A stretch of DNA of 10,864 nucleotides from a virus (lineage: Duplodnaviria; Heunggongvirae; Uroviricota; Caudoviricetes). Positions 2,038-9,000 of the stretch are shown here, in pieces. The translations under genes and the position numbers were made by a program. The notes beneath the pieces are model-generated. The model worked only from the letters and a program-made list of their open reading frames with translations, did not search any database and had not been told where the DNA came from. Numbering within the stretch: position 1 is the stretch's first letter; every line of letters begins with the position of its first letter. The stretch covers positions 1 to 10,864 of the IMG/VR virus record IMGVR_UViG_2534682158_000020. One strand, given 5' to 3'.

Positions 2038-2126
2038 AACAATTAACCTGCTGCGAAAAAATTGGATCAGTGCAGGGGAATTATATCAACCGTGTGACGA
2101 AGCGCCACAATTGCCGGATAACAGGC

Positions 2127-2153
2127 AAAAAAAGACCACCGTGACAGGTGGCC
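2127..2153 (-). terminator. Rho-independent terminator, minus-strand orientation
   Basis: On the - strand: GGCCACC / GGTGGTC stem (7 bp with one G-U), 6-nt loop, followed by TTTTTTT (plus-strand A-run 2127-2133). Confidence 0.45.
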
Positions 2154-2385
2154 CTTCGACACAAGTTACACGTTATCCCCAACGTATGAGCATTGCCAAC
2201 AATGCCACATTTGCGGCTGGTGGGCAAAGCGTAACCGGAAAAAAATTCCGGTGGGGCTATTCCTGCTCTTTGTCCTTGCGTCGCTGGCGACGTTTGATCT
2301 CATGCAGAATTTTTTCAGGTAAGAATCCTGCTGATTTATTTTCTGGTAGCAATGGTTTGTTATCTGTCTGCTTCCTGGTCATACA

Positions 2386-2583
2386 TCAACCTTTTGGTTC
2401 GTTACGTTTCCATACCTGCAATGGGCGAGTTTTCCTGTACTCTTTTAGGAATTTCTCAAGAGCAAAAGCACATGGTGAGAATCTTTCTGACTCATGCTCA
2501 TGCGCTATCTTGCTGCGCCGTCTTTTCCGTGAAGGTGATGTTTTTTCGGTTGATTCGTTGTTGGTCATTCTGTGTACCTGCAT
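2386..2583 (-). CDS. Hypothetical small basic protein (65 aa) downstream of the RHH-like gene; weak call
   Basis: ORF 42 nt after the RHH-like stop on the same strand. No clear Shine-Dalgarno and no recognisable family. Confidence 0.2.
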   Translation of the reverse strand: MQVHRMTNNESTEKTSPSRKRRRSKIAHEHESERFSPCAFALEKFLKEYRKTRPLQVWKRNEPKG

Positions 2584-2625
2584 AGCAATGCGCCGGAGTT
2601 CCTCACACCACGGCGCTGATAGTTA

Positions 2626-2931
2626 TTATTCTGATTCTTTGGCCTTGCGGCGCTGGAGTTCTTCACGTGCGACGGTGACGAGCTGCCCGATCTCCTCGGC
2701 GGCTTTGACTCCGATTTTTTCCACCTGCGCCAGTGCATCGAGCGAAGAAACCAGGGGATTTTCTCCGCTTCCTTCTGCCTGGCGCCTGGCGATCTCCCCG
2801 CGCATGGCGGTTACTATAAATCCGGCGTTGCTTTCGCCGTCCAGTTTTACGGATTCCATGCCTTCAATAACATCATGCGGGATCCGAGCTGTCAGTGATT
2901 GTGATTTTGTGTTTTTTGAACCTGTAGCCAT
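2626..2931 (-). CDS. Putative DNA-binding protein, possibly ribbon-helix-helix (Arc/CopG-like); candidate regulator of the divergent early operon
   Basis: ATG at 2931 with GAGAGG 7 nt upstream on the - strand, 101 aa. N-terminal segment SLTARIPHDVIEGMESV fits a beta-strand then helix RHH pattern. Fold assignment is by eye only. Confidence 0.55.
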   Translation of the reverse strand: MATGSKNTKSQSLTARIPHDVIEGMESVKLDGESNAGFIVTAMRGEIARRQAEGSGENPLVSSLDALAQVEKIGVKAAEEIGQLVTVAREELQRRKAKESE

Positions 2932-3020
2932 CTGTAATCCTCTCAATGAAAGTGTAAGACAATATACACACAAAAAGTATTACATAAAAGCATTGACATG
3001 TAAGCCACCTATAAACAAAG
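2932..3020. promoter_or_regulatory. Divergent promoter region between the RHH-like gene and the early operon leader
   Basis: Perfect -35 TTGACA at 2993-2998 on the + strand, but the nearest TATAAA (3010-3015) is only 11 bp away, so the exact promoter is unresolved. AT-rich and free of credible ORFs. Confidence 0.35.
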
Positions 3021-3290
3021 TTACTTACACCTTATTGGTGCAAGGTTCAGAAACGACGAAACCCGGCAGTGCGCGAACACTAACCGGGCTTCTAACCACC
3101 AGCGATAGAAAGATTATCGAGGTAGCTATGTTAAATCATACCACACACCCGCAAGGGCGGGACTTGCACAACCTGAATAAACCCGATGTAAAAAACCTGT
3201 TGCTCGCCACTGCCAGCCAGGGCTATGATTTATACGCACCAGCAAAATCTGGTGCCGGGATTGGCGTCCTGGTATTTAACGAAGCGCACA

Positions 3291-3313
3291 ACACGCGCCC
3301 TGCGTGTTTTTTT
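3291..3313 (+). terminator. Intrinsic terminator inside the early-operon leader (attenuator-like)
   Basis: Stem ACACGC (3291-3296) / GCGTGT (3302-3307), loop GCCCT, then a 7-T run (3307-3313). Lies about 160 bp upstream of the first early gene. Confidence 0.6.
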
Positions 3314-3475
3314 GTGCCGGATAGTCACACCTTATCAATGGTGGGCTGTATGGGGGCGGAGCAATCCGCGCCGGGTTCTTCGTTAACCGGTTACGCCAAC
3401 CCCGTACAGTCCACCGCCAGCGAAATTGGCGTTTCCTGCGGTGGGTTTATTAACCCTAACGAAGAGGCTGCCAAC

Positions 3476-3664
3476 ATGGCTACAGTCCCTACCCTTGTAC
3501 ATTCCCAAACTGCCTTTATCTGGCGCTTTATCATCTTTGGCGCGTCAGAATCCCAAATCATCCACGTCACCGCATGGACGGAACGCGAAGCGCGTAACCA
3601 TTGCCCGTCCGGTTGTGTCGCTGTATTCGCCGCCCGTATTCGTCAGGGGGTGAGTCATGCATAA
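3476..3664 (+). CDS. Icd/Kil-like small protein (host cell division inhibitor family), first gene of the early operon
   Basis: 62-aa ORF, ATG 3476 with AGAGG 8 nt upstream. Motifs FIWRF ... TEREAR ... VFAARI match my recollection of Icd-like proteins of P4-type elements. Stop overlaps the next start. Confidence 0.55.
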   Translation: MATVPTLVHSQTAFIWRFIIFGASESQIIHVTAWTEREARNHCPSGCVAVFAARIRQGVSHA

Positions 3665-3884
3665 AATACCCTTTGATGTTCTTGTTCATTCTGAAAACGC
3701 ATTAATCCGCGCAAAGGAAATGGACGCATTACTACTTAAGTTAATTGATGTGCCGGAAAGTGGCGATGAATCTGATTCAATGATGTTTTCTGCCGTGCGT
3801 ACGCTATTAACGCCTGTTATTAATGAATTAAATACAGTGATGGCAATTCACGAGAATAATAAAGCGCAGCACACCGGAGAATAA
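3657..3884 (+). CDS. Hypothetical acidic protein (75 aa)
   Basis: ATG 3657 preceded by AGGGGG and overlapping the Icd-like stop (coupled). No family recognised. Confidence 0.6.
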   Translation: MHKIPFDVLVHSENALIRAKEMDALLLKLIDVPESGDESDSMMFSAVRTLLTPVINELNTVMAIHENNKAQHTGE

Positions 3885-3889
3885 AAAAC

Positions 3890-4189
3890 ATGAAAAAGAA
3901 AAATACTGGCGTTAATGCCAGCGGCCCCGCTCGTCCTGAATTTATGAACGGCGATATTTACCGCGATAAATATGGCGGCATGGTAACGATTAAAGGCGTG
4001 GCAGAACGGCGCATCACTTACCGCCGTGATGGCTACGAATATGACTGCGTGATGCCTGTTTATCAGTTCCGGAGTGATTTTTCACTGATACAGGCCACAC
4101 CACGCAGACAGCCCACCAGCTACGCAAAGGCATGGGCAAATATTCAGAAAATGAAAAACATGATTAACGCATTCAGGGGCAAAAAATGA
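3890..4189 (+). CDS. Hypothetical protein (99 aa)
   Basis: ATG 3890 with GGAG upstream; its stop overlaps the primase start (ATGA at 4186-4189). No family recognised. Confidence 0.6.
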   Translation: MKKKNTGVNASGPARPEFMNGDIYRDKYGGMVTIKGVAERRITYRRDGYEYDCVMPVYQFRSDFSLIQATPRRQPTSYAKAWANIQKMKNMINAFRGKK

Positions 4190-5991
4190 AACTGGCACCG
4201 AACTTAAAAAAACAGCCACACGACAAAATGACCGAAGTCATTATTTTTGCGGGTAGTGATGCCTGGGCGCACGCGAAACAATGGCAGGAGCAGGACGGGC
4301 GACTTGCTGGCGACAATGTTCCGCCTGTATGGCTTGGAGACAGCCAGCTTGACGAACTGGCAGACCTGAAAATTATCGACGATGGTCGCTATTGTGTCCG
4401 GCTGTACAAGGCAGGCCACATCAAGCCGTCAAATATTAATGCCATCGGGCAAAAGCTGGCGGTGGCAGGTGTACGGGATGCGAATTATTACCCTGAGGGA
4501 ATGCACAGCCAGAAGCGGGAGAACTGGCACGAATATCTGGAGCGTGAGCGCCAGAATCTTTCTGATGGTCTGGTTATTCAGCTTCCTGTTAAGAAAAAAA
4601 CAGAAGACAGCGCCGCACCACTGGCGCTTAACCAGATGGGAGCAAGCCAGCGCGGCGAAGTTCTCCTGGCACGTTATGGCGGTGAACTGGCAATCAATGC
4701 GGACTCTGACACCGTTCACCACTACAACGGCGTTGTATGGGAGCCGGTACAGGATAAAGAGTTACAGCGGGCTATGGCGCAGATTTTTATTGATGCGGAG
4801 ATCAGTTATTCGCAGAACGCCATCAAATCGGCGGTCGATACAATGAAGTTAAGTTTGCCCGTAATGGGGAATACCGCCCGTAACCTGATTGGATTCAGTA
4901 ACGGTGTTTTTGATACCCGGACAGGCGATTTTCGGGAGCATGACAAAAACGACTGGCTGTTAATTGCCAGTGAATTACCGTTCAGCCCGCCAGCAGAGGG
5001 GGAAACGCTGGCAACGCATGCGCCGAATTTCTGGAAATGGTTGCGCCGTTCGGTGGCTGAGAATGACCGTAAAGCGGATCGCGTACTGGCGGCGTTATTC
5101 ATGGTGCTGGCGAACCGATACGACTGGCAGTTATTTCTTGAGGTAACGGGGCCGGGTGGAAGCGGTAAAAGCGTAATGGCGGAGATTTGCACCATGCTGG
5201 CGGGTAAGGCCAACACGGTATCGGCAAGCATGAAGGCGCTGGAAGATGCCAGGGAACGCGCGTTAGTGGTTGGATTTTCGCTGATTATCATGCCGGATAT
5301 GACCCGCTACGCTGGTGATGGCGCAGGAATTAAGGCCATTACAGGCGGTGACAAGGTGGCAATCGACCCGAAGCATAAAGCCCCCTACTCAACACGCATT
5401 CAGGCGGTCGTGCTGGCGGTGAACAATAACGCCATGTCATTCAGTGACCGCAGCGGGGGGATCTCACGTCGTCGGGTGATATTCAATTTTTCGGAGGTTG
5501 TACCGGAAAACGAACGCGACCCCATGCTGGCAGAAAAAATAGAAGGAGAGCTGGCGGTTGTGATTCGCCACCTGCTTACTCGTTTTTCTGACCAGGACGA
5601 AGCTAAACGCCTGCTGTATGAGCAGCAGAAATCAGAAGAAGCACTGGTGATAAAACGCGAGGGCGATTCGCTGGTGGACTTCTGCGGCTATCTCATGTCG
5701 TCGGTAATGTGTGATGGTCTGTTAGTGGGTAATGCCGAAATTATTCCGTTCAGTCCGCGCAGGTATCTTTATCACGCCTATCTGGCATATATGAGGGCAC
5801 ACGGATTCGGTAAACCTGTAACACTGACGCGCTTCGGTAAAGATATGCCGGGGGCAATGGCGGAATATGGCAGGGAGTATATGAAACGGAAAACGAAGCA
5901 CGGTTTGCGTTCAAATGTGACCCTTACAGAGGATTCAGAAGACTGGATGCCATCATGTGCATCGGTCACAAATGACGATGGAAAAAATTAA
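4186..5991 (+). CDS. Primase-helicase replication initiator, P4 alpha-like (satellite Pri-Rep)
   Basis: 601-aa ORF with AGGGG RBS. Walker A motif GPGGSGKS in the central region; overall resemblance to phage/plasmid primase P4-family proteins; immediately followed by the iteron cluster. Confidence 0.9.
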   Translation: MKLAPNLKKQPHDKMTEVIIFAGSDAWAHAKQWQEQDGRLAGDNVPPVWLGDSQLDELADLKIIDDGRYCVRLYKAGHIKPSNINAIGQKLAVAGVRDANYYPEGMHSQKRENWHEYLERERQNLSDGLVIQLPVKKKTEDSAAPLALNQMGASQRGEVLLARYGGELAINADSDTVHHYNGVVWEPVQDKELQRAMAQIFIDAEISYSQNAIKSAVDTMKLSLPVMGNTARNLIGFSNGVFDTRTGDFREHDKNDWLLIASELPFSPPAEGETLATHAPNFWKWLRRSVAENDRKADRVLAALFMVLANRYDWQLFLEVTGPGGSGKSVMAEICTMLAGKANTVSASMKALEDARERALVVGFSLIIMPDMTRYAGDGAGIKAITGGDKVAIDPKHKAPYSTRIQAVVLAVNNNAMSFSDRSGGISRRRVIFNFSEVVPENERDPMLAEKIEGELAVVIRHLLTRFSDQDEAKRLLYEQQKSEEALVIKREGDSLVDFCGYLMSSVMCDGLLVGNAEIIPFSPRRYLYHAYLAYMRAHGFGKPVTLTRFGKDMPGAMAEYGREYMKRKTKHGLRSNVTLTEDSEDWMPSCASVTNDDGKN

Positions 5992-8263: not shown

Positions 8264-8605
8264 ATGGCTACTCATTACACTGAACTCATGGCTGGCACTG
8301 AAGCACTGGTTACTACGTTGGGGATATTTTCAGCTAATAAAGGGGTAATTCCTGCATTTACGCCACTGATGCAAGAAGATGCAACTGGTGCACTGGTGGT
8401 ATGGGATGGAACGAGCGCAGGCAAAGCTGTTTATGTTTCCGCTGTACAAATCGATACAGCGACAAAAACGCAGGCTCAGGTTTATAAAACCGGCGTCTTA
8501 AATGTTGATGCTCTGAACTGGCCTGAATCTGTAACACAACTATCAGCAAAAGTTGCTGCGTTTGTTGGCTCAGGTATTTCTGTTCAGCCGCTGGCTCGTG
8601 TGTAA
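8264..8605 (+). CDS. Head decoration protein, lambda gpD family
   Basis: 113 aa versus 110 for lambda gpD; matches gpD motifs TPLM, LV.WDGT..G.AV, YK.G, WPE, AF.G..IS. Starts 10 nt after the capsid gene with a GGGGGAG RBS. Confidence 0.9.
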   Translation: MATHYTELMAGTEALVTTLGIFSANKGVIPAFTPLMQEDATGALVVWDGTSAGKAVYVSAVQIDTATKTQAQVYKTGVLNVDALNWPESVTQLSAKVAAFVGSGISVQPLARV

Positions 8606-8616
8606 AGGGGGATACA

Positions 8617-9000
8617 ATGCAGAATGATTACAATGACCTTAAGCCAATTGCCGAAATGATGTACCCGAATCAAGCTGTAGAGGAATTAAAAGCTATCGCT
8701 GACAAAATGTGTTTAAGCGAGCGCCTTGTTGATATGAATCAGGTGATGGAAATTACAACCCTGAGTCGTCGTACACTGCTAAACCTTGAGGCTAGTGGAG
8801 AGTTCCCGAAGCGTGTGCAGGTTACGGAAGGGCGTAAGGCCTGGTATTTAAGTGAAGTGATCGACTGGATAAATAATATTCCTCGCGCTTCTGAATATTG
8901 CCGCGTACCTGTCCCAAAAAAGCCAGATGCGGCGCTATGCCTCAAGATTGAGCGTGTACGCCGCAATGCACGGGATGGTCGCTATAAGCTGATTGGTTGA
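8617..9000 (+). CDS. AlpA-family HTH protein with an N-terminal extension (127 aa)
   Basis: C-terminal half (MNQVMEITTLSRRTLLNLEASGEFPKRVQVTEGRKAWYLSEVIDWINN) has the AlpA/Vis-type motif. ATG 8617 with GGGG RBS, 12 nt after the gpD-like stop. Confidence 0.7.
   Translation: MQNDYNDLKPIAEMMYPNQAVEELKAIADKMCLSERLVDMNQVMEITTLSRRTLLNLEASGEFPKRVQVTEGRKAWYLSEVIDWINNIPRASEYCRVPVPKKPDAALCLKIERVRRNARDGRYKLIG

Follow-up and report, generated by a model that had tools for sequence, protein, structure and literature searches.

A probable P4-type IsrK/C4 RNA immunity cassette, and a candidate opposite-strand antisense RNA, in an E. coli PICI-like satellite

In the window analysed here (the whole stretch of DNA, 10,864 nucleotides), the segment 3182-3475 reads from its sequence, with high confidence, as a P4-type IsrK/C4 RNA immunity cassette (seqA-CI-seqC) carried by an E. 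coli PICI-like satellite. P4-style RNA immunity in this leader had been suggested in the initial annotation, which named a covariance-model search as a means of checking it. That search was positive for both families, with 76.4 bits for C4 (gathering score 45) and 80 bits for isrK (gathering score 50), and the suggestion is also supported by the Icd-like first gene. The main IsrK/C4 system is already known, and C4 and isrK Rfam matches have been published in several Gram-negative PICIs (PMC10111431); the only element of possibly new biology is a conserved antisense RNA opposite the icd 5'UTR. The features, with the evidence for each in brackets, are as follows.

2626-2931, minus strand: divergent YlcI/YnfO-family gene, 101 aa (NCBIfam NF041551, 71.1 bits; phrog_6522; RefSeq annotation of relatives)
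2993-3021, plus strand: candidate upstream promoter, TTGACA (2993-2998), 17 nt, CAAAGT (3016-3021) (sequence and aligned relatives)
3024-3044, no strand assigned: palindrome CTTACACC-TTATT-GGTGCAAG, which is copy 1 of a direct repeat (fold -6.3 kcal/mol, z -3.25)
3048-3127, minus strand: candidate SymR-like cis-antisense small RNA, ~80 nt, two hairpins (fold, covariation, sub-threshold Rfam symR)
3128-3181, plus strand: what remains of an icd gene of the C4-less type, its opening 18 codons (MLNHTTHPQGRDLHNLNK) (alignments with L125-L127)
3128-3664, plus strand: eta-like ORF, 178 aa, enclosing the internal promoter, IsrK, C4 and the icd/kil-like gene (Pfam, NCBIfam)
3135-3143, minus strand: extended -10 promoter element TGGTATGAT for the antisense RNA, within codons 3-6 of the plus-strand ORF
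3200-3229, plus strand: candidate PLE/PisrK-like promoter TTGCTC-18-TATGAT, putative +1 at ~3236 (read from the sequence)
3236-3312, plus strand: IsrK / P4 seqA-like RNA, made up of two hairpins at its 5' end, a linker that is single-stranded, and the intrinsic terminator (Rfam RF01394)
3256-3267, plus strand: a1 target, core ATTGGCGT at 3260-3267, in the IsrK hairpin-2 loop (inverted repeat, family-wide covariation)
3276-3284, plus strand: b1 target TTAACGAAG, 16 nt past a1 within the linker of IsrK (inverted repeat, covariation)
3290-3312, plus strand: intrinsic terminator (terminator scan, Rfam isrK match)
3334-3421, plus strand: C4 / P4 CI-like antisense RNA, predicted mature form ~3340-3419 (Rfam RF01695)
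3377-3399, plus strand: seqB-like recognition elements, b' being the hairpin-2 loop UCUUCGUUAA (3377-3386) and a' the junction ACGCCAA (3393-3399); written as RNA, this window-type pair is b' GUUCUUCGUUAA, a' ACGCCAA
3425-3432, plus strand: a2 target ATTGGCGT (direct repeat D7 with 3260-3267)
3457-3467, plus strand: b2 target TAACGAAGA (paired part 3457-3465), overlapping the icd Shine-Dalgarno (SD) AGAGG at 3463-3467
3476-3664, plus strand: Icd/Kil-like gene, 62 aa, the first regulated gene (NCBIfam NF033153, 59.7 bits; RefSeq annotation)
3657-5991, plus strand: downstream operon of a 75-aa ORF, a DUF4222 protein and a D5-type primase-helicase (Pfam, PHROGs)

The regulatory region is bordered on its left by the divergent YlcI/YnfO-family gene, and on its right the icd-like gene is followed by the DUF4222 gene and then the primase, an order that fits premature termination ahead of replication genes. 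From this gene order and the P4 analogy, the operon at 3657-5991 is presumed to be under immunity control. Pfam and PHROGs searches of the window ORFs found a lambda E-like capsid protein, a D-like decoration protein, AlpA, TerS, SSB and a D5-type primase, and gave no Psu, Sid or Delta match among the same ORFs. The element thus differs from P4 in being without sid, psu and delta and in carrying lambda E/D-like capsid genes, TerS and AlpA, and its window ORFs do not make up the hallmark set of P4-like satellites (sid, psu, delta, epsilon and an alpha-type primase). As a whole it fits the layout of Gram-negative PICIs and not that of a P4-like satellite. The PICIs with "Bro-zone" immunity RNAs have the same island organisation, sharing the order of an integration zone, a dynamic zone with the immunity RNAs, a replication zone (primase, SSB, DUF5906) and a late zone in which the captured capsid genes lie (Mageeney et al. 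2023, PMC10111431).

The immunity locus of P4 (PLE - seqA - CI RNA (seqB) - seqC - kil, within eta) contains the same two Rfam families in the same order, IsrK corresponding to seqA and C4 to CI (PMC3632133; PMC4825925). The C4 match is to the full length of the model, on which P4 CI itself scores 74.9 bits, and the RNA folds with -47.9 kcal/mol (z -4.7). Its closing stem (3340-3415) is followed by G-CCA, the same layout as in P4; by a fold-based test of NCCA placement after the closing stem, CCA lies within 0-1 nt of that stem in 56 of 83 distinct cores. RNase P processes both CI and C4 (PMC5499578), and because of the tRNA-like stem with NCCA and the P1/P4 precedent, the C4-like RNA is probably matured by RNase P at ~3339/3340 and trimmed after G-CCA at ~3419.

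The isrK match has an E value of 3e-16, and the seqA region of P4 matches the same family with 60.8 bits; taken alone, IsrK does not fold significantly better than its shuffles (z -1.6). Folding recovered all four hairpins listed in the initial annotation (3062-3089, 3148-3161, 3236-3255, and 3355-3370 with its GCAA loop), of which the third is hairpin 1 of isrK and the fourth hairpin 1 of C4, and the intrinsic terminator that it had placed at 3291-3313 was located by the terminator scan and the isrK match at ~3290-3312. Directly 5' of isrK lies the candidate promoter TTGCTC-18-TATGAT, which falls below the threshold of the consensus scan; its position relative to hairpin 1 matches that of TTGCCT...TATAGT in P4, and the isrK transcription start site (TSS) of Gifsy-1 has the same placement (PMC4825925). 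At the candidate upstream promoter, aligned relatives show TTGAC(A/G)...TAAAGT/TAGATT/TAAATT; it is weak by consensus, and a TSS at ~3027-3029 can be proposed for it with low confidence. Both leader promoters were proposed by eye and from alignments, and a sigma-70 consensus scan called neither, returning nothing usable in 2990-3240.

The initial annotation had sought a leader segment complementary to two repeated sequences 300 bp apart. A seqB-like element does exist, at 3377-3399, and its complements are a1/b1 and a2/b2, not the repeats. Of the 12 positions of the a1 site (3256-3267), 11 are complementary to 3393-3404 (inverted repeat I3); b1 is complementary to 3378-3386 at 9 of 9 (I9) and b2 to 3377-3385 at 9 of 9 (I10). 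The complementarity of a' to a1 and a2 extends over 7-12 nt. The b'-b2 pairing covers part of the SD only, with 9 Watson-Crick pairs reaching A3465 and possibly one further G.U. Predicted duplexes of the C4 loops are stronger than those of shuffled loops, both with IsrK (-39.5 kcal/mol vs -24.4 +/- 3.6) and with 3422-3480 (-30.6 kcal/mol vs -22.2 +/- 3.5).

The pairing is maintained across the family. In a sample of 100 unique related loci with 65 loop combinations, sites complementary to the loops stand at fixed offsets, a2 at +21 to +26 past the C4 core and b2 at +52 to +55, running into GGA/GAGG. The b' of a locus has an exact complement, 8 nt or longer, upstream in 72% and downstream in 74% of loci, as against 1% for loops taken from other loci; for a' (complement of at least 7 nt) the corresponding values are 96% and 5%. 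The near-identical E. coli island L001 has a 97%-identical backbone in which all six pairing sites have been switched jointly, giving the recognition pair b' UUUCCUUGAUUG, a' GUGGUAA. The cassette of this window is also carried by E. coli strains such as W12-1 and E21845/O/A, with ~97% identity from position 3027 of the window on. P4 shares this recognition geometry but has other sequences (TTCACAGG and GTGAGAA): recognition is at two sites (a, b), with the upstream targets in the terminated leader RNA and the downstream targets at the SD of the Icd-like kil. The spacing between IsrK and C4 is more compact here, with a1/b1 at -91 and -76 from the core vs -178 and -162 in P4. Every recognition sequence differs from that of P4, and a different immunity specificity is predicted as a result; it is proposed that the pair of loop sequences sets this specificity.

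The first regulated gene and its P4 counterpart are both Icd-like, the P4 kil region scoring 73.9 bits on NF033153, and their start contexts are near-identical. The SD of the gene here lies 8 nt before ATG 3476, and the gene is nested in frame inside the eta-like ORF. The initial annotation had found no credible ORF in the leader; this view has to be given up, as the 178-aa ORF, with an SD (GAGG, 3119-3122) and ATG 3128, matches Phage_ASH over residues 36-126 (Pfam, 58.9 bits) and Icd-like over residues 130-173 (NCBIfam). Read in the same frame as the downstream gene, the leader is in fact open from end to end (ORF 2111-3664). The architecture recurs in P4 Eta (8767-8168), where Phage_ASH scores 82.4 bits, and BLASTP matches the eta-like ORF to this protein with an E value of 5e-6. 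The leader is therefore not simply non-coding: an eta-like ORF encloses its RNA elements, as in P4. The idea that "Ash protein" is a purely spurious translation was softened, the enclosing ORF eta being real in P4. The likeness to P4 thus takes in the enclosing ORF with Phage_ASH, the closing stem with GCCA, and the primase-helicase operon downstream.

The 5' end of the ORF has another origin. Translation of eta in P4 is coupled to that of an alpA homolog lying upstream; the eta-like ORF here follows a 5'UTR taken over from a C4-less icd gene, together with a candidate SymR-like antisense RNA. In L125-L127, the annotated icd begins at the equivalent ATG, and isrK and C4 are absent (alignments A2, A3); strain 98E11 carries a C4-less island. 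By alignment, 3040-3181 is the start of such a C4-less icd gene, comprising its 5'UTR and 18 codons, with a putative recombination junction into the cassette at ~3182.

The proposed working of the cassette begins with the putative promoter just 5' of 3236, from which transcripts would mostly stop at the terminator, giving an IsrK/seqA-like RNA of ~77 nt that bears a1 and b1. Read-through transcripts would carry the C4/CI-like RNA, to be released by the probable RNase P cleavage. Its b' and a' would then pair with a2/b2 just downstream and occlude the SD of the nested icd/kil-like gene, leaving an untranslated RNA prone to Rho-dependent termination, so that the DUF4222/primase replication operon would be off. 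The pairing with a2/b2 is read here from the sequence, and the Rho-dependent termination is suggested by P4 and P1. Pairing of C4 with a1/b1 might reinforce early termination in cis, or free IsrK might titrate C4, as in the model for Gifsy-1. The IsrK effect here may be of either sign, because the Gifsy-1 IsrK acted as an activator (PMC4825925).

The Gifsy-1 precedent also offers the best-surviving alternative, in which the module would be mainly an induction switch and not an immunity repressor. The long read-through RNA would fold into an inactive "structure A", its IsrK middle being paired to C4-region sequence on the 3' side, and free IsrK would open this structure in trans, switching on an ORF from ATG 3338 or 3350 and thereby icd and the downstream genes. 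In the Salmonella Gifsy-1 isrK-orf45-anrP locus (IsrK sRNA and STnc1160), where this mechanism has been shown experimentally, a terminated IsrK-family RNA is likewise followed by a C4-like stable RNA (PMC4825925). Both loci have AUGs in the C4 5' stem and a long-range helix between the IsrK middle and the C4 3' side, the equivalent of helix b-I being 3256-3267 x 3393-3404 (11/12). The orf45 AUGs (+107, +120) have their equivalents at 3338 and 3350, in frame with icd and with no intervening stop, although the second AUG is absent from L001; orf45 is a separate 45-aa ORF in Gifsy-1, whereas its counterpart here is fused in frame to icd. Against this circuit, the downstream gene in Gifsy-1 is the lambdoid-prophage antirepressor anrP, whereas here icd and replication genes follow, as in P4, and throughout the family changes in the C4 loops go with matching changes in the a2/b2 sites, which are fixed at the SD, as a repressor-target relation predicts. 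We regard a Gifsy-1-type circuit as possible but on the unlikely side; it and the repressor model are not mutually exclusive.

A P1/P7-type immI system (c4 - icd - ant), with C4 blocking icd translation so as to hold back an antirepressor, is very improbable. The family match of C4 and the Icd-like first gene would suit it, and in P1/P7 too the a'/b' loops of C4 recognise a1/b1 and a2/b2, the latter at the icd ribosome-binding site (C4 recognition and RNase P maturation: PMC2864571; PMC5499578). However, no antirepressor follows icd here: next come the 75-aa ORF, DUF4222 and the primase, ant is absent, and Pfam and PHROGs found no Ant, KilA or Bro domain in the ORFs after icd. The upstream target is also of the terminated isrK type and not c4-a1b1. 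The model for the latter (RF03163) does give a sub-threshold match (39.8 bits vs a gathering score of 46.7), but the element scores as isrK above gathering and as c4-a1b1 below it, exactly as in P4.

Two further readings have next to no standing. The first takes the two ACACCTTAT..TGGTG segments 300 bp apart as seqA/seqC-like targets of the immunity RNA, as the initial annotation had proposed. The direct repeat itself is genuine (3022-3035 and 3322-3335, 14 nt, 86%, family D1), and its second copy lies just past the terminator. Dinucleotide shuffling of 2990-3475 gave an exact 9-mer direct repeat in 36.5% of cases and the composite of a 9-mer with a 5-mer within 0-3 nt in only 1.6%, the latter being mildly unusual but a pattern chosen post hoc. 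As immunity-RNA targets, the repeats are highly unlikely. They have no complement in the loops of the C4-like RNA, their duplexes with these loops (-10.1 and -11.6 kcal/mol) equalling those of shuffled loops (-11.8), and the copies fail to co-vary: L020 has an identical copy 2 and a degenerate copy 1, whereas L001 retains copy 1 and has an altered copy 2 (alignment A1). Copy 1 also lies outside the cassette, in a region missing from other cassette-bearing loci, and the co-varying a1/b1 and a2/b2 have been identified as the true targets. The point at which RNase P is predicted to cleave, at the start of the C4-like RNA, falls within copy 2. Copy 1, near the upstream candidate promoter and putative TSS, is the palindrome listed above and might serve as an operator or form a hairpin at the 5' end of the mRNA. 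The second reading, that the region is simply protein-coding (Ash/Eta family) and its RNA-family matches are by-products of conserved coding sequence, is scarcely credible: the frame is open over 3128-3664, and through C4 in ~80% of related loci, its translation has Pfam Phage_ASH and PHROG families, and RefSeq annotates an "ash family protein", but variation takes the form of complementary sets of three, a loop changing along with its upstream and its downstream site, and does not follow synonymous positions, structure-aware scores far exceed threshold, CI was established as an RNA by P4 genetics (PMC5499578, PMC3632133, PMC10111431), and P4 eta combines coding and RNA functions.

To return to the P4-type immunity cassette, translation of the eta-like ORF from an upstream promoter would, by analogy, override the block, as in P4, where the eta/kil logic has been summarised (PMC10111431). 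The 5' end of this ORF, inherited from a C4-less icd gene, appears in turn to be gated by a SymR-like cis-antisense RNA from the opposite strand. We tentatively propose that the opposite strand of ~3048-3143 encodes an uncurated RNA of this kind, which would gate translation of icd-type cell-division inhibitors in a type-I toxin-antitoxin-like arrangement, and which would here form a second RNA layer over the eta-like "override" ORF, the cassette having recombined in after icd codon 18.

The candidate folds with -35.3 kcal/mol (z -5.6). Among 50 variants of the block, 98.2% of cells are paired as a minus-strand RNA vs 84.9% as a plus-strand RNA (152 G.U cells), double changes are seen at 10 of 13 terminator pairs, and none of 500 shuffles reached the observed values of pairing and covariation. 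The layout is that of a cis-antisense RNA: the -10 falls within the opening codons of the target, the candidate RNA spans the SD and 5'UTR ahead of ATG 3128, and its second hairpin (3089-3062) with a U-rich tail is a predicted terminator of its own, the hairpin and T-rich tail being present on the minus strand only. Within the -10, TA...T is invariant, the variants being TGGTATGAT (40), TATAAT (4) and TATTAT (1).

The best Rfam model is symR (RF01809), which is sub-threshold, at 32.7-33.9 bits vs a gathering score of 61 (E ~1e-4), and a sub-threshold match is also found in L002 and L125. A MIR821 match in L002 (37 bits vs a gathering score of 249) was dismissed as noise. The likeness to the E. 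coli symE/SymR type I system, which concerns the minus-strand RNA only, lies in an antisense RNA of ~77-80 nt with two hairpins that covers the SD and 5'UTR of its target and has its -10 in the target's first codons; the -10 of symR lies in the symE ORF (PMC1891008). The score is well below gathering, however, and the target ORF is Icd-like (a division inhibitor) or Eta-like, not a SymE (AbrB-fold) toxin; the antisense TSS is predicted 1 nt before the start codon, whereas that of SymR is 6 nt inside the ORF. A search of the literature on C4 antisense RNAs and satellites, and on Icd-like genes and antisense RNA, found no description of the minus-strand RNA, which is weak evidence of novelty.

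By analogy with P4, then, a common E. coli PICI-like satellite would keep its replication operon silent by a P4-type IsrK/C4 RNA system. Now that the recognition sites have exact coordinates, hetero-immune islands can be predicted, given the 65 loop combinations seen and sister islands that differ only in their six pairing sites. Annotations of an "Ash family protein", or of long "Icd-like" proteins, over leaders of this kind hide RNA genes within an eta-like ORF. The antisense block is found in about one-quarter of complete E. coli genomes, as well as in islands of Yersinia, Serratia, Erwinia and Edwardsiella, and its RNA, if real, would add a widespread type-I-toxin-antitoxin-like control to the early genes of satellites.

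The leader upstream of the icd/kil-like gene carries a textbook immunity cassette of the P4 IsrK/C4 type. At Rfam gathering thresholds, isrK (RF01394) matches 3236-3312 with 80 bits and the C4 antisense RNA (RF01695) matches 3334-3421 with 76.4 bits, so that the covariance-model search for the C4/P4 CI family suggested by the initial annotation was positive; with relaxed thresholds only, c4-a1b1 (RF03163), the a1/b1 target motif, overlaps isrK at 39.8 bits. The same scan of phage P4 placed a C4 match on the CI RNA (8420-8507) and an isrK match on the seqA region (8615-8692), and the isrK and C4 pair was also found in phage SfV and two E. coli relatives. Published work has equated IsrK with seqA and C4 with CI (PMC3632133; PMC4825925). 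The C4 closing stem is followed by G-CCA, as in P4. All of the hairpins and the intrinsic terminator listed earlier are present, and three of these elements fall in isrK/C4:

3236-3255: isrK hairpin 1, inside the isrK match
3290-3312: isrK terminator, the intrinsic terminator of the initial annotation
3355-3370: C4 hairpin 1, with a GCAA loop, inside the C4 match

The segment complementary to the targets, sought in the leader as a seqB-like sequence, lies at 3377-3399 and has two parts: b', in the loop of C4 hairpin 2 (3377-3386), and a', in a single-stranded junction (3393-3399). The b' part has two exact 9/9 complements: b1 (3276-3284), which lies in the linker of IsrK 5' of the terminator, and b2 (3457-3465), which extends into the Shine-Dalgarno AGAGG (3463-3467), 8 nt from ATG 3476. 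The partner of a', ATTGGCGT, is present twice, as a1 (3260-3267, IsrK hairpin-2 loop) and as a2 (3425-3432). Computed duplexes of the loop region reach -39.5 kcal/mol with IsrK (3236-3312) and -30.6 kcal/mol with 3422-3480, compared to -24.4 +/- 3.6 and -22.2 +/- 3.5 kcal/mol for shuffled loops.

The proposal of P4-style immunity was thus right in kind, given the isrK/C4 matches, the pairing and the covariation described below, but the 300-bp-spaced repeats that had been put forward as its targets are not the targets. The repeat exists (family D1), but its copies are not a functional pair, because they vary independently in the alignment of the window with L001, a sister island in E. coli C311; their duplexes with the loop region (-10.1 and -11.6 kcal/mol) are at the level of shuffled loops (-11.8 kcal/mol). 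When the region was shuffled with its dinucleotides preserved, 36.5% of the shuffles contained an exact 9-mer repeat and 1.6% the 9+5 composite. Copy 1 forms a palindrome where an upstream transcript putatively begins, and copy 2 spans the RNase P site predicted for the 5' end of the C4-like RNA.

A C4-core scan of viral contigs supplied 120 loci, and the 100 unique loci analysed carry 65 b'/a' combinations. A complement to the locus's own b' (at least 8 nt, exact) is found upstream in 72% and downstream in 74%, against 1% and 1% for the loops of other loci; for a' (at least 7 nt) the values are 96% and 96%, against 5% and 5%. The a2 and b2 sites lie at fixed offsets 3' of the C4 core (+21 to +26 and +52 to +55), and the spacing of a1 and b1 is constant at 16 nt. 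The distance of a1/b1 from the core falls into three discrete classes. Positions 4036-4610 of L001 align with 2935-3500 of the window, with the upstream leader 97% identical and the flanks conserved, and all six pairing sites are swapped coherently (a1 ATTACCAC, b1 CAATCAAGG, b' TTTCCTTGATTG, a' GTGGTAA, a2 TTACCAC, b2 CAATCAAGGAGG). On this alignment, immunity specificity has been swapped naturally between two islands that share one backbone. The P4 sites have the same geometry as those of the window, with different sequences (TTCACAGG and GTGAGAA). Among the viral contigs, one b' is combined with several a' and vice versa, with TTTCCGATAACG seen with five a' types, which suggests that b' and a' are two specificity determinants shuffled as modules.

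The statement that the leader holds no credible ORF did not survive, since the downstream gene's frame stays open through the whole leader (ORF 2111-3664), which contains:

3128-3664, plus strand: 178-aa ORF starting at ATG 3128, with GAGG 3119-3122 as Shine-Dalgarno

This ORF is eta-like and encloses a kil/icd-like gene, based on the open frame, a Phage_ASH match and the eta/kil nesting of P4 (PMC10111431). Of 99 loci, about 80% keep the icd/kil-like frame open through C4 and for at least 250 nt 5' of the ATG, compared to 2% and 17% for the other frames. The Pfam Phage_ASH match coincides exactly with the translated isrK and C4 stretch (nt ~3233-3505), and the model also matches P4 Eta (8767-8168). 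PHROG 29966 and RefSeq "ash family protein" pseudogene calls likewise correspond to this translated span, inside the eta-like ORF. The 62-aa ORF 3' of the RNAs (ATG 3476-3664) scores 59.7 bits on the NCBIfam model "host cell division inhibitor Icd-like", on which the P4 kil region scores 73.9 bits, and the P4 kil start context, GAGGCTGCCAtCATGGCTACA, is nearly identical to that of the window. In P4, the PLE, seqA and CI are located inside gene eta, Kil is a nested truncated product made on read-through, and translation of full-length Eta from an upstream promoter prevents termination (PMC10111431, summarising Forti 1999). Positions 2922-2931 and 3476-3485 form a perfect 10-nt inverted repeat; ATGGCTACAG opens both the icd-like gene and the ylcI-family gene that diverges from it (cf. 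ATGGCTACAA at P4 kil), which may be chance or a common translation-initiation context.

Family membership of both RNAs, loop-target complementarity and its covariation, overlap of b2 with the Shine-Dalgarno of the Icd/Kil homolog, and the stem with G-CCA were computed directly. By the precedent of P4, P1 and Gifsy-1, a promoter at 3200-3229 (TTGCTC-18-TATGAT) would start transcription at ~3236, termination at 3312 would yield IsrK, and RNase P maturation would produce a C4-like RNA of ~80 nt (~3340-3419; PMC5499578). A block of icd translation would then lead to Rho-dependent termination 5' of the primase operon, and eta-like translation would override the block. The a1/b1 sites could serve as a second target in cis, following the P4 model, or IsrK in its free form could be an anti-antisense activator, as in Gifsy-1, which the window resembles in an equivalent of helix b-I (3256-3267 with 3393-3404) and of the orf45 AUG (ATG 3338 and 3350).

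The element is a Gram-negative PICI-like satellite, with the gene order int, small ORFs, ylcI (minus strand), RNA immunity cassette, icd, DUF4222, D5-type primase and SSB, followed by a lambda E-like major capsid protein, a D-like decoration protein, AlpA and TerS. The same layout, in which int is followed by a dynamic zone that holds the immunity RNAs, by primase and SSB, and by capsid, decoration protein, AlpA and TerS, has been described for such islands, several of which have C4 and isrK Rfam matches (PMC10111431). Relatives adjoin tRNA-Pro beside yejM, and the top E. coli match covers 85% of the window at 95.8% identity. Half-sites of the GTGTAAG/CTTACAC type (2952-2958, 2999-3003, 3024-3030) and a palindrome of the form CACC..GGTG that surrounds the putative upstream promoter, with AACACC/GGTGTT palindromes at the same place in relatives, may be operators for an island repressor (2949-3044).

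Judged from its sequence, the leader is recombinant, because the 5'UTR and first 18 codons of a C4-less type of icd switch to the P4-type cassette at ~3182; recombination appears to have brought in the isrK-C4-icd cassette behind codon 18. Of 5426 complete E. coli genomes, 1318 (~24%) carry the block 3040-3181, most of them with neither isrK nor C4, and in three such loci, L125 (1501-1795), L126 and L127, the annotated icd begins at the equivalent of ATG 3128. The window-type junction is found in only ~5% of block-bearing genomes (61/1318 cover at least 80% of 3040-3235). The hairpin at 3148-3161, CCCGCAAGGGCGGG, falls in the icd remnant at codons 7-12 and, read on the minus strand, immediately precedes the antisense -10; almost every Escherichia-type copy of the block has it unchanged, so that it gives no covariation signal.

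The same block holds one further feature:

3048-3143 including its -10, minus strand: candidate cis-antisense RNA of ~80 nt, opposite the 5'UTR and Shine-Dalgarno of the ORF from 3128

The hairpin at 3062-3089 is most likely the terminator of this candidate RNA over the Shine-Dalgarno of the icd/eta-like ORF, as argued by folding, covariation, strand asymmetry, a T-rich tail and a conserved -10. The 50 distinct variants aligned, including those from Serratia, Yersinia, Erwinia and Edwardsiella, fold into two hairpins with 98.2% of cells paired in the minus-strand sense, against 84.9% in the plus-strand sense (152 G.U cells). Double changes affect 10 of the 13 pairs of the second hairpin, the observed values were reached by 0/500 shuffles, and the covariation score was 0.239 compared to at most 0.085 in slid controls. 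The T-rich tail follows the hairpin on the minus strand only (44% T versus 8%), and codons 3-6 contain a conserved extended -10, either TGGTATGAT or TATAAT. Rfam SymR gives a full-length, sub-threshold match on the minus strand (3127-3055; ~33 bits versus a gathering score of 61), and symE/SymR has an analogous layout. A literature search for a minus-strand antisense RNA opposite icd found no description of one. The P4-type cassette has already been noted in print for PICIs, and the SymR-like antisense RNA may be the only part of this leader that is new.
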